From: Escherichia coli O157:H7
GTDB taxonomy: Bacteria > Pseudomonadota > Gammaproteobacteria > Enterobacterales > Enterobacteriaceae
Length of the DNA stretch: 64,000 nucleotides
Direction: 5' to 3' (one strand)
Assembly: GCF_013167455.1 (NCBI RefSeq)
Contig: NZ_CP038328.1
Made by a program: the position numbers. The first letter of the stretch is position 1; each line of letters begins with the position of its first letter. Shown piece after piece: positions 12,001 through 15,000 of the stretch.

Positions 12001-15000
12001 CCAATTGCCTGTGAACCGTACAGTACGGAATATGGACCTTTCACTACCTCAACACGCTCCAGCGCAGACTCATCTATCAACAGTCCCACACCATAATTAT
12101 CTCCGGCGCGCTGATAAGTTACCTCCTGACCATCAATGAGAATTAAAACACGGGAGGATGCTTCGCCACGAATGCGGATTTGTTTACGGCCTGCCAAGGA
12201 GTTGTCTGTTATCTCTACTCCGGGGATGTCCTGCAAATTATCGGCTATGGAGGCATTGGTGGAGTTCTGCAATGTTTGTTGGTCAATAACCTGTATAGTC
12301 GCCGGGCTTTCCCAAAGGTTGCTTGCCGAACGATTCGTGGTCACGACGAGCGTCTCTTCGTTGCTGATTTTTGTTTCTGAAGAAGTTGCGGTTGCAGTAG
12401 AAACTATCCCAGAAATGCATAATGACAGAGTGGAAAGGATATAAATTCGACAAGGTATATTATATAACATTTCATCCCTCATTAATACAAAGTACAAATG
12501 ATTGCTGTAATGATAATTATTTTCATTTATGTTCTCATATATCTATAATTATTGTCATCTTCATAAATTGTAAATATCAAACATTTTTGACCTTAATCAT
12601 GTTTTTTGATAGATATTTTACGACTGAACATATCCGTCGTTTCCTCTGACTCGTGTCAGTCGGTCTCTGGTTGTATCCACGGACCGCACTCTTGACATAA
12701 GAGTGCGGTCCGTGGAAAACGGAGTTGAAAAAATGGTGTCTGAAAGAAGGTACCATCATTGTGATGACAAATACTTTGGCGTGGATAATGTAATTAATTG
12801 CTGAAATTGACCGTATATGCGGTAAGACTCATATCAGTATCAGGTCCGGTTAATTGCTGATACTAATATAAACTTTTTACAAAAGGATGAATGCAGAAGG
12901 TTACTCTAATGGCCAGAGTGATGACAATGATGGTCAGACGTTGACCTGCAGAAACTGCATTTTAATTGGTCTATAAAGTCTGCAAGAGGAATCAGGGTCA
13001 GATCAGTGAGTCTTATCGCGGCCCGAAGCTATGACTGAAAGAAGGCTGGATACAGAATTGCAACAATTTGGCAATGTCAGAACACAGAAGCTTTGCAAGC
13101 AGGTGAAAGGTTATGTCTAGCAAAAGGAGTATATCAGAATATATCTACTGATGTACAAAACACAACAATAGCTTCATGATATATAAATACGTGATGACGA
13201 GTGGTACTCCGCATGGTTATTTAACTTCTAAGCACCACTAATGATCCTGAGCAACTTCGTATTTGGGCCATTACCATGGAGTAGAAAGCTGTGTCTGAGA
13301 ATGCAGAATTTGAGAAAAGAATTCGCTTTCTTGGAGAGATTCTGAAAATGGCACGCTAACAACGTTTTGTTAAAAAATGTGAATTACTTGCCGGGGCTGC
13401 ATTTTCTATTCGAGGAGAATGTTGACGTAGATATTACAGAAATCTCAGCGCATCAGGATAAACTGCTACCTTAGGTCAACCACCAAAAGAAAATACAATA
13501 CGTCCAGTTTGTATGCCTTTAATAACACATCTTCTAAATGTTGAAGAATTATCCCGCCTGCTGAAGAACGTTGCTCTGAGTGTAATAAACCTTTTTATTC
13601 TTGATGATGTCAGCGAGAAGATGGAATATATCCCCGACTGGGTCGTGGTTACCCGGTTAAACATCTGGTGGTGCTAATAAATCTGGCAAGTCACATTCTG
13701 TTGAATGCTGTGACAGTGCCTTACCGAGAGAGCGAAATTGTGGTGTTCTAGTGCATAGTCGCCACCATTCCGGATAATTCTATTACGTTGTTTTACAAGT
13801 TCTTTTACAGCGCAGATCTGTCGCTGACGTTGAATCAATAGCCTGGATTTCAGAACACAATGCCCGTTTGCTGGTTGTTCGTAAGCGTACAGCGAGGGCC
13901 GTATTGACGGGGATGTGTTATTCAGCTGGCAGTGCTATGCGCCACGGAAGCAGTTCGCTGACCCGGTTGACCGGCCAGTCTGCTATGACGCCAAGCACAT
14001 GGCGAAGGTAGCTTTCTGGATCCACGTCATTCAGTTTGCACGTCCCGATCAGGCTGTACAGTAGCGCTCCCCGCTCACCACCATGATCAGAGCCGAAGAA
14101 CAGGAAGTTTTTACGACCCAGACTGACCGCCCGCAGGGCATTTTCAGCGATGTTGTTGTCGATTTCCACCCAGCCATCGTTCGCATAGTACGTCAGTGCC
14201 GGCCACTGGTTAAGTGCGTACGCGAACGCCTTCGCCAACTCTGAGTGTCGCGACAGGGTCTTCATCTTTTCACGCAACCAGCTTTCCAGGGATTTCAACA
14301 ACGGTTTCGTTTTTCGCTGACGTTCAGCAAGCCGCTGCTCTGCCGGCATTCCCCTTATATCCGCCTCTATGGCGTACAACTGACCGATCTGCTCCAGGGC
14401 TTCTTCCGTCAGTGCTGACGGGATGCGGACGTGCACATCGTGGATCTTTCGGCGGGCATGAGCCCAGCAGGCAGCTTCCGTTATCCCACCATTGCGATAC
14501 AGCTCGTTGAACCCGGCGTACGCATCCGCTTGCAGCACACCGCTGAAGCAGGCAAGATGAGTCTGCGGATGGATGCCTTTTCTGTCCGGGCTGTAAGCGA
14601 ACCACACTGCAGGTGCCAACGCTGACCCTGCATTGCGGTCATCACGAACATACGCCCACAACCGCCCGGTCTTCGTCTTCTTATTACCCGGCAGCAGTAC
14701 CTGGACCGGGGTATCATCGGCATGGAGTTTGCCGTCAGTCATGACATAGCCATGAAGCGCCTCTTCCAGCGGAGACAGCAGCCGGCAGCATGCATCCACC
14801 CAGCCCGACAGCAGTGAACGCCTCAGCTCCACACCTTGCCGGCCGTATATTTCTGACTGGCGATACAGCGGGGTGTGCTCTGCATACTTCGAGGTCAGCA
14901 CGCGGGCCAGCAGCCCCGGTCCGGCGATACCCCGCTCGATGGGCCGCGAAGGTGCAGGTGCCTGCACGATGGCATCGCACTGAGTACAGGCATGTTTTTC

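Follow-up and report, generated by a model that had tools for sequence, protein, structure and literature searches.

An insertion sequence graveyard upstream of a TonB-dependent receptor gene in Escherichia coli O157:H7 and the probable template-switch origin of its perfect 18-bp hairpin

The window is a stretch of 64,000 nucleotides from E. coli O157:H7 (contig NZ_CP038328.1, assembly GCF_013167455.1). The segment studied here lies at the right edge of the O157:H7 island SpLE2, the counterpart of CP4-44 in K-12. The region was 100% identical in the O157:H7 genomes compared. An earlier reading of the sequence alone described an AT-rich, ORF-poor segment bounded by the start of a receptor gene and by an ISEc8 insertion. 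This description held throughout. The G+C content was 0.33-0.42 over 12300-13800 and 0.47-0.63 in the flanks. The longest ORFs were 75, 62, 60, and 54 aa, and a Pfam scan of the plus-strand frames of the segment gave no match. The receptor start codon is at 12470 in the Sakai yoeE annotation, and ISEc8 occupies 13881-16322. The features of the segment are as follows.

12471..12600, minus strand: AT-rich promoter of the TonB-dependent receptor gene, with its Fur-binding cluster (Sakai annotation, PMC2189734); the outer limit, 12600, is approximate.
12520..12549, plus strand: divergent sigma-70 promoter TTTTCA-18-TATAAT (consensus scan, 10 of 12 matches; PMC3946193).
12674..13116, plus strand: 3' remnant of an IS1111-type (ISEc11/ISEc66-like, "IS110 family") insertion sequence (nhmmer, plasmid and chromosomal matches).
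12676..12716, no strand assigned: perfect hairpin, 18-bp arms around a 5-nt loop (GACAT), located where the IS1111-type remnant is truncated on its 5' side.
12686..12844, plus strand: yoeH pseudogene, the last ~53-55 codons of the transposase with two in-frame stops (mapped from K-12).
12848..13116, plus strand: relic 3' non-coding region, seekRNA-coding in ISEc11 (alignment with 8 relatives).
13117..13179, plus strand: tail of an IS66-family tnpB, the last ~20 codons, LAKGVYQ...TTIAS and the stop (BLASTP, DNA and protein comparison).
13213..13640, plus strand: N terminus of an IS66-family tnpC, ~150 codons, frameshifted and with stops; the main part of K-12 yoeG.
13641..13838, plus strand: internal piece of a transposase of the IS4 family, covering yeeH and the end of yoeG (NCBIfam, plasmid transposases, PGAP).
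13847..13880, plus strand: start of a cobalamin-biosynthesis pseudogene fragment of the chromosomal backbone (PGAP, strains without ISEc8).
13881..16322, minus strand: intact ISEc8 (IS66 family) with an 8-bp target duplication, absent from K-12 (Sakai repeat_region, K-12 comparison).

No separate gene or RNA locus resides in the segment, which is annotated pseudogene debris common to K-12 and most E. coli that carry the island. A degraded gene, with the yoeG-yoeH region of K-12 as the comparison to make, was among the identities first proposed, and it proved right. The same pseudogenes are present in both strains, and the segment was 99.6% identical to the yoeH-yoeG-yeeH region. In K-12 these three genes lie between yoeA and cobU, and window positions 12165-13751 were 99.6% identical to MG1655. 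Positions 13748-13880 were 100% identical to the yeeH side of IS5H. The two strains differ in their intact insertions. K-12 has IS5H at 13748-13751 (CTAG target) and IS2 inside yoeA. In the window, by contrast, ISEc8 lies at 13881 and the receptor gene contains an IS629-like element. The suggestion of foreign, H-NS-associated DNA was equally sound, given the SpLE2/CP4-44 location and an H-NS site at the yoeH spacer (PMC3946193). A literature search under the O157 locus tags returned nothing relevant to the segment.

The K-12 RefSeq annotation lists yoeH, yoeG, and yeeH without a product, and of these pieces RefSeq names only the IS4 one. The three are fragments of IS1111-type, IS66-family, and IS4-family elements, respectively. 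Concrete identities can now be given to each: yoeH is the C terminus of an IS1111-type transposase followed by a relic seekRNA region, yoeG is the N terminus of an IS66 TnpC, and yeeH is an IS4 fragment. NCBIfam matched the IS4 piece only; the IS66 and IS110 identities come from tblastn, nhmmer, and BLASTP against intact elements.

The receptor gene is named yoeE in Sakai and yoeA in K-12. In an information-theory model, yoeA has the strongest predicted Fur cluster in E. coli (27.4 bits, 12 sites, 95 bp; PMC2189734). The strongest site is at -48, and binding was confirmed by gel shift (Chen et al. 2007, PMC2189734). The gene is also listed as a Fur target elsewhere (PMC4676285, PMC10164565). 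A search of the receptor promoter for a strict consensus Fur box with at most 3 mismatches found none, and our Fur assignment rests on the published model and gel shift. The sigma-70 promoter at 12520-12549 points away from the receptor, towards the hairpin and yoeH. Shimada et al. 2014 (PMC3946193) assigned these hexamers to a constitutive RpoD promoter of yoeH and listed an H-NS site with it. Another genomic context for the receptor upstream region was sought as a guide to its native left boundary; none was found, and the context was always the same. Esr41, an O157-specific iron sRNA beside a siderophore receptor, was considered and rejected. It is located in SpLE1/OI-43 next to iha.

Of an element of about 1440 bp, the IS1111-type remnant retains the final 30%, about 440 bp. 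A profile of 8 relatives matched it with nhmmer at E 2.6e-61 (window 12674-13102, envelope 12660-13114). Homology begins at 12674 (position 1051 in a profile of 1530 positions), so the element is not complete. All matches stop at 13098 on the 3' side, with weak similarity to about 13116. Its identity to plasmid and chromosomal elements was 67-74%. These relatives come from plasmids of E. coli, Salmonella, Shigella, and Pantoea and from Photorhabdus and Serratia genomes. No intact relative above 74% identity was found in E. coli genomes, plasmids, or one contig scan with a degenerate pattern (about half of the 20 genome matches in that scan were chance matches in unrelated phyla). The remnant would represent a distinct, extinct lineage, since it shares only 67-74% identity with any relative found.

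The yoeH product was 48% identical to residues 278-337 of 339 of an intact transposase (BLASTP, E 2e-12). The transposase fragment contains in-frame stops, a frameshift, and a 10-nt deletion. Downstream of it, the non-coding region aligned along its whole length with that of the 8 relatives. The corresponding region of ISEc11 encodes a seekRNA (Siddiquee et al. 2024, PMC11187229). The consensus structure contained 60 pairs, 10 of them with compensatory changes, and was drawn mostly from the relatives. In the window copy 16 of the 60 pairs were broken, compared with 0-4 in the relatives, which indicates that the element as a whole is decaying. Like ISEc11 and ISEc66, it has a DEDD transposase gene, then ~270 nt of non-coding sequence, and then the right end, with homology over the transposase C terminus and the whole 3' non-coding region. 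Unlike them, it keeps the last 30% only, and it has the broken RNA pairs. Judged from its sequence, the remnant is an IS1111-type fragment that should be incapable of moving.

The IS1111-type element was inserted in an IS66-family tnpB. A common IS66 target site for such elements was considered and rejected: the copy in pRHB06-C11_2 lies within tnpC, and the one here lies in tnpB. A guide-like 8-mer (CAAAAGGA) shared by the relic non-coding region and the insertion flank was also rejected. Its region is conserved among elements with different targets.

The IS66-family homologues occur in the order tnpB-tnpC, both as fragments with stops. The tnpB tail matched residues 107-124 of 126 of an intact plasmid tnpB product (BLASTP, E 4e-4). 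The tnpC fragment covers the N-terminal third of the gene. Its stitched translation aligned with residues 1-151 of an intact IS66 TnpC at 54% identity (E 7e-44), and the fragment matched plasmids by tblastn at E 3e-18. K-12 yoeG extends over 13213-13745 in the window. Its promoter, TGTACA-17-CATGAT (Shimada, PMC3946193), lies at 13152-13180. The IS4 fragment matched positions 132-193 of 332 of NCBIfam NF033592 (21.8 bits, E 8.8e-5). With no more than 62 residues left to score, it falls well short of the 115-bit cutoff. It was 74.5% identical in protein sequence to annotated plasmid IS4 transposases, and PGAP places an IS4 pseudogene at 13650-13838. The cobalamin-biosynthesis pseudogene is interrupted by ISEc8 and resumes at about 16333-16440.

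A perfect inverted repeat with a 5-nt loop had been noticed at 12677-12715. The repeat is real, but the arms are 18 nt and not 17. They lie at 12676-12693 (TCCACGGACCGCACTCTT) and 12699-12716 and are 100% complementary. No other perfect hairpin-type repeat in the window is as long; the next ones are 13 bp and terminator-like. The maximum arms in 20 block shuffles were 8-11 bp, which places 18 bp far beyond chance. The predicted RNA fold was -43.7 kcal/mol on the plus strand and -38.5 kcal/mol on the minus strand, with z-scores of -8.7 and -7.9. The locus occurs once per genome in 2,760 genomes; a second place counted per record is the palindrome matching itself. The K-12 hairpin is identical to that of the window.

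Both arms lie inside transposase coding sequence (alignment A2 and the nhmmer alignment). By these alignments, the hairpin was shown to be built from that coding sequence. Intact relatives encode ...FIHGARAAALLTKEPGPWI... here. Their only inverted repeat at these codons (IHG...GPW) is imperfect and 8 bp long, (A)TCCACGG / CCGTGGA(T). They carry ATCCACGG...CCGTGGAT, with about 33 nt between. Compared with them, the window has lost 10 nt from the left arm, and four clustered nucleotides of the right arm differ, with GTGC in place of ACCA. About 8 of the 18 pairs in the stem can already form in the relatives. The others are lineage specific, and all of them create complementarity. The changes are exactly those that complete the 18-bp stem, in keeping with template switching at a quasipalindrome.

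The 10-nt deletion and the GTGC patch would each have turned one arm into the exact complement of the other. A quasipalindrome in the dead copy may in this way have become a perfect 18-bp palindrome by one or two short replication template switches. The known quasipalindrome "correction" pathway of E. coli is the most likely route. Template-switch mutations associated with quasipalindromes are reported in E. coli (PMC7202029). On this account the ancestral transposase gene would read ...CACGGAGCAAGGGCGGC...AAAGAACCN.... At least two templated events in opposite directions would be required, or one event plus an ancestral state that is not seen. The immediate ancestor of the hairpin cannot be reconstructed, because no relative closer than about 74% was found. 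As at the thyA and lacZ reporter hotspots for quasipalindrome mutation in E. coli, clustered templated changes and a small deletion would have made an imperfect repeat perfect. The locus differs from those hotspots in that the pathway is read from relatives of 70% identity, two events are needed, and the stem is unusually long, at 18 bp perfect.

At its 5' end the remnant breaks off no more than about 2-15 nt from the hairpin base, a coincidence for which simple "correction" does not account and which suggests a link between the 5' deletion and the formation of the hairpin. The coincidence also bears on another origin. The palindrome may be an inverted duplication made when the IS1111-type element was truncated, that is, a non-functional scar of the breakpoint. 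A broken or stalled end would have folded back on a short internal repeat and then been extended. Transposase homology ends a few nucleotides from the hairpin base (nhmmer start 12674, envelope 12660), as this origin would have it. The outer left arm and its flank, GGTTGTATCCACGGACC, are similar to the reverse complement of the right arm and flank of the relatives, GGTTATCCACGGACC. In our reading of the alignments, GGTTGTATCCACGGACC is as similar to that reverse complement as to the native upstream codons, and the fit of a breakpoint scar to the data is as good as that of template switching. The two origins are not distinguishable on this evidence, because the native sequence is itself quasi-palindromic. 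Against a scar, the profile alignment matches TATCCACGGA to the native FIHG codons with the right codon phase and a simple 10-nt deletion. The flanks are not complementary past the 18-bp arms, whereas fold-back synthesis typically yields longer arms. We consider a breakpoint scar unlikely. The segment is probably a Fur-controlled receptor promoter followed by dead IS fragments, with an internal hairpin that arose by template switching and has no selected function. It would then be a clean natural case of a coding quasipalindrome converted to a long perfect palindrome.

Observations on strains bear on function. A C-to-T change at 12687, in the left arm, is uncompensated. It is common to three strains from different sources, and the variant lineage is widespread. 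In strain BCE049 a clean deletion of 40 nt has removed the hairpin, and the receptor ORF is full-length. The hairpin is kept in about 2,200 genomes, and the flanking dead sequence is conserved to the same degree (98.7-100%).

A leader structure for the receptor, one of the functions first proposed, is not supported. The hairpin had been placed about 180 bp upstream of the receptor. Its actual distance is 206-246 bp, since the start codon is at 12470 in the Sakai yoeE annotation. The Fur cluster and promoter lie around -48 (PMC2189734), and the hairpin is upstream of both and therefore outside the leader. The strain that lacks the hairpin has an intact receptor gene. A small RNA gained no more support. 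A scan against Rfam 15 for structured RNA, with permissive E-values up to 10, matched no family and gave only chance matches. The best were eukaryotic miRNA and CRISPR repeat models at 20-22 bits (E 0.6-5.7), compared with gathering thresholds of 39-90 bits for those models. There is no U-tract 3' of the stem on either strand (AAAACGG on plus, TACAACC on minus), and the arms have their origin in transposase coding sequence. A terminator scan did not call the hairpin. It resembles a Rho-independent terminator in its G+C-rich perfect stem and short loop but differs in the absence of a U-tract on both strands; on the minus strand, T-runs precede the stem.

The hairpin could still act as an RNA element within a longer transcript, either the yoeH sense RNA or an antisense RNA directed to the receptor. 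It might stabilise the transcript, let RNase III enter, cause a pause, or form a roadblock, and so tune or insulate the Fur-regulated receptor promoter. The sigma-70 promoter at 12520-12549 is aimed at it, and the predicted RNA stem is very stable whichever strand is read. Transcription of the region in K-12 is pervasive and yields both sense and antisense RNA, with no defined sRNA (PMC6847712). The transcripts are a yoeH sense RNA and an antisense RNA of ~150-200 nt, the latter seen only without RNase III and terminated by Rho (PMC6847712). The C-to-T variant retains a G-U pair in the plus-strand RNA. The retention of the hairpin in so many genomes speaks against a mere by-product. Several results count against an RNA function. 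The same variant gives an A-C mismatch in the minus-strand RNA. The stem consists of pseudogene coding sequence, has no Rfam family or U-tract, and lies outside the receptor leader, upstream of the Fur cluster and promoter. One strain that has lost it keeps an intact receptor gene, and the stem is conserved no better than the dead sequence around it. An RNA function is very unlikely on balance. We infer that the hairpin has no selected function; transcripts of low level, sense and antisense, would include it, and at the DNA level it would be mildly unstable.

There is likewise only a slim chance that the hairpin has been recruited to block traffic on RNA or DNA, or to admit RNase III, between the pervasively transcribed IS debris and the strongest Fur-controlled promoter of E. 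coli. If it has, it would shape the yoeH sense/antisense pair and so insulate or tune expression of the TonB-dependent receptor, and a template-switch mutation would have made a regulatory hairpin from dead transposase sequence. The biological importance at large is small. The locus carries a caution that strong hairpins in AT-rich island DNA should not be read as riboregulators.

A palindrome of this kind may also suggest a DNA site, such as an operator bound by a dimeric regulator, a mobile-element end or target, or one copy of a repeat family of the REP or MITE type. It has perfect two-fold symmetry and is located between a regulated promoter and mobile-element debris. It occurs only once per genome, however, and the K-12 annotation has no REP or repeat feature there. 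Arms of 18 bp with a 5-bp center are atypical of operators. The IS1111-type ends are elsewhere, the right end being at about 13116, and both arms are of coding-sequence origin. A DNA site is extremely improbable.

The BCE049 deletion (12679-12718) lies between ACGGA direct repeats at 12679-12683 and 12719-12723. This strain provides a natural allele in which the palindrome was later deleted between flanking 5-bp repeats.

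The segment at 12500-13880 coincides with a pseudogene region that is already annotated, yoeH-yoeG-yeeH. Many E. coli O157:H7 chromosomes, those of Sakai and EDL933 among them, matched positions 12400-13950 of the window with 100% identity. In Sakai, the counterpart of this stretch forms the right end of SpLE2, a phage-like element, with the gene order yoeE (ECs_2792, minus strand), ISEc8, and cobU-cobS-cobT. Adding 8399 to the Sakai locus coordinate gives the window coordinate, so that the start codon of the receptor gene falls at 12470 and ISEc8 spans 13881-16322. K-12 MG1655 carries the same DNA in cryptic prophage CP4-44. 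Its stretch from IS2F to IS5H was 99.6% identical to window 12165-13751, and the far side of IS5H was 100% identical to window 13748-13880. From the overlaps, the target duplications were 4 bp (CTAG) for IS5 in K-12 and 8 bp for ISEc8 in the window. The sequence-only reading had proposed a degraded gene or foreign DNA, and this location in SpLE2/CP4-44, with 99.6% identity to the K-12 pseudogenes, bears out both. The segment is also AT-rich and ORF-poor, as described; its G+C content was 0.33-0.42 versus 0.47-0.63 outside, and its longest ORF was 75 aa. It contains the following features.

12471 to ~12600: receptor promoter, from the literature on yoeA, the K-12 name of the receptor gene (Chen et al. 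2007, PMC2189734)
12674 to ~13116: 3' end of an IS1111-type insertion sequence (DNA search, nhmmer, protein alignment)
12686-12844, plus strand: yoeH pseudogene, mapped from K-12
13117-13179: tail of an IS66-family tnpB (LAKGVYQ...IAS-stop against LAKWVYQ...ITQ-stop, E 4e-4)
13213 to ~13640: IS66-family tnpC, N-terminal ~150 codons with stops and frameshifts (54% identity to intact TnpC, E 7e-44)
13213-13745, plus strand: yoeG pseudogene, mapped from K-12
13641-13838: internal fragment of an IS4-family transposase (NCBIfam E 8.8e-5; PGAP pseudogene)
13752-13838, plus strand: yeeH pseudogene, mapped from K-12
from 13847: cobalamin-biosynthesis pseudogene fragment (backbone), split by ISEc8

The segment lacks ORFs because each part is a promoter, a natively noncoding IS region, or a broken transposase gene. 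In RefSeq O157 genomes, PGAP annotates only a 189-bp piece of the IS4 fragment, which shares 74.5% protein-level identity with plasmid IS4 transposases. The unannotated IS1111-type and IS66-family remnants (12686-13640) are larger and better scoring. The K-12 record gives yoeH, yoeG, and yeeH without product names. The present analysis adds a family identity for each piece and assigns yoeH and the downstream spacer to an IS1111-type relic that includes the seekRNA region.

The IS1111-type remnant was 67-74% identical to the 3' ends of ISEc66 and other "IS110 family" elements in a distant DNA search, and every match stopped at 13098. A profile of eight relatives gave a single nhmmer match (E 2.6e-61) between window 12674-13102 and profile positions 1051-1493 of 1530. 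The yoeH frame was 48% identical to the C-terminal 60 residues of an intact transposase of 339 aa (E 2e-12), and the ~270 nt after yoeH align with the relatives' 3' noncoding region. ISEc11 belongs to the IS1111 family, and there the corresponding region codes for the seekRNA, which directs the choice of target (Siddiquee et al. 2024, PMC11187229). Of the 60 pairs in the relatives' consensus structure, 10 showed compensatory changes. In the window copy, 16 of these 60 pairs are disrupted, versus 0-4 in the relatives, so the RNA-coding part is decaying too. The remnant is not a functional IS1111-type element, as its ORF, left end, and RNA structure all fail. K-12 likewise carries the seekRNA-type relic (12848-13116) in its yoeH-yoeG interval. 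Given its position beyond the documented promoter of yoeH, on the downstream side, the relic may still be transcribed despite the broken pairs.

The tnpB tail directly follows the remnant, so the IS1111-type element had inserted into tnpB. ISEc11/ISEc66-like elements recur inside or adjoining IS66-family elements. In plasmid pRHB06-C11_2 (L010, 1-3810), one lies within tnpC after codon ~42; in L009 (1-2300), one adjoins an IS66 ORF; and one ISEc11 copy is directly upstream of IS66 accessory genes. This may be co-location in IS-rich DNA rather than targeting, because the insertion sites differ (inside tnpB in the window). An intact relative with clean boundaries lies exactly between umuD and umuC on a Pantoea ananatis plasmid (L007, 1001-2436). 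In four relatives, an ATG occurs 5 nt beyond the conserved right-end sequence ...GTTCATA(C/T)A(G/A).

The yoeA promoter has the strongest predicted Fur-site cluster in the E. coli genome (27.4 bits, 12 sites in 95 bp), with the strongest site at -48 and binding verified by gel shift (Chen et al. 2007, PMC2189734). Later work also names yoeA as a Fur target (PMC4676285, PMC10164565). No strict consensus Fur box with up to 3 mismatches was found in the receptor promoter, so Fur control here is taken from the published work. At 12520-12549 lies a divergent promoter, TTTTCA-18-TATAAT, which Shimada et al. 2014 (PMC3946193) list for yoeH as constitutive and RpoD dependent, together with an H-NS site. 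Relative to Sakai, yoeE contains an extra 1,310-bp IS3-family element (10656-11965), flanked by a 3-bp target duplication and 95.8% identical to the adjacent IS629/IS1203 copy; its orfA and orfB are the ORFs at 10710-11036 and 11033-11923. In the present strain, the receptor whose start the sequence-only reading used is therefore disrupted.

The perfect inverted repeat exists as reported, but its arms are 18 nt rather than 17 bp (12676-12693 and 12699-12716, loop GACAT, 100% complementary), and it lies 206 bp, not ~180 bp, from the annotated receptor start. No other perfect short-loop repeat in the 64-kb window is as long; the runners-up were 13 bp, and block shuffles reached at most 8-11 bp. 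The RNA folds at -43.7 kcal/mol (plus strand) and -38.5 kcal/mol (minus strand), with z-scores near -8, and the DNA at -24.4 kcal/mol. A second small hairpin, CTGAC-TCGT-GTCAG (12648-12661), lies 15 nt upstream; the sequence around it had no detectable homology to transposase or the other things searched.

The main hairpin is neither a terminator nor an Rfam RNA, and it belongs to no repeat family. An Rfam scan gave no match, neither strand has a U-tract 3' of the stem, and the locus occurs once per genome, all of which speaks against a function. The suggested small RNA thus lacks support. So does a leader structure, since both the Fur cluster and the promoter of the receptor lie between the hairpin and the gene, which puts the hairpin outside the leader. 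In K-12, yoeH gives rise to a sense RNA and to an antisense transcript of ~150-200 nt; the latter is detected only in cells mutant for RNase III and is Rho terminated via iRAP#6850 (PMC6847712). In view of these RNAs, a function of the hairpin keeps a small probability.

Both arms lie within sequence homologous to the transposase gene. The relatives read TTTAT(C/T)CA(C/T)GG(A/C)GCAAGGGCGGCAGCATTACTGACCAAAGAACCNGG(T/C)CCGTGGATAAC at this site, encoding FIHGARAAALLTKEPGPWI, and their sole symmetry is an 8-bp imperfect repeat, ATCCACGG/CCGTGGAT, ~33 nt apart. Here the window has TATCCACGGA-[10 nt missing]-CCGCACTCTTGACATAAGAGTGCGGTCCGTGGAAAAC, in which the inner part of the left arm (GCA CTC TTG ACA) is native, because it still encodes ALLT in synonymous codons. 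The 10-nt gap in the left arm puts TCCACGGA in register with TCCGTGGA. In the right arm, GTGC replaces a proline codon (ACCN) found in all relatives, and it is the exact complement of the left-arm GCAC. About 8 stem pairs preexisted in the relatives; the other ~10 arose by changes, all raising complementarity. The chance of this is roughly 4^-10, so a directed mutational process or selection is required. Quasipalindrome-associated template switching is an established E. coli pathway (PMC7202029). It yields clustered templated changes and small deletions, exactly as in the hairpin, and two events would be required for the perfect repeat. Our explanation is that the hairpin is most likely a by-product of sequence decay. 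An inverted duplication made at the truncation breakpoint fits equally well. Transposase homology stops only a few nucleotides from the base of the hairpin, suggesting a link between the palindrome and the deletion that took away the remainder of the element. No relative above 74% identity was found among E. coli genomes, plasmids, and one genome-contig pattern scan, so the ancestor cannot be reconstructed.

Across E. coli, the entire dead segment is 98.7-100% conserved, and the conservation of the hairpin therefore carries no information. Strain variants also speak against a function. Three strains of differing source share a C-to-T substitution in the left arm (12687) with no compensating change. 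Strain BCE049 (L014, 2446-2620) has a natural, clean 40-nt deletion equivalent to window 12679-12718 in which the entire hairpin is gone. The deletion falls between 5-bp ACGGA direct repeats, and the receptor ORF is full length. Deletion between direct repeats is the classic fate of palindromes. Ends of IS3 and IS2 adjoin 12683/12684 and 12866/12867 in further strains, indicating ongoing erosion of the region.
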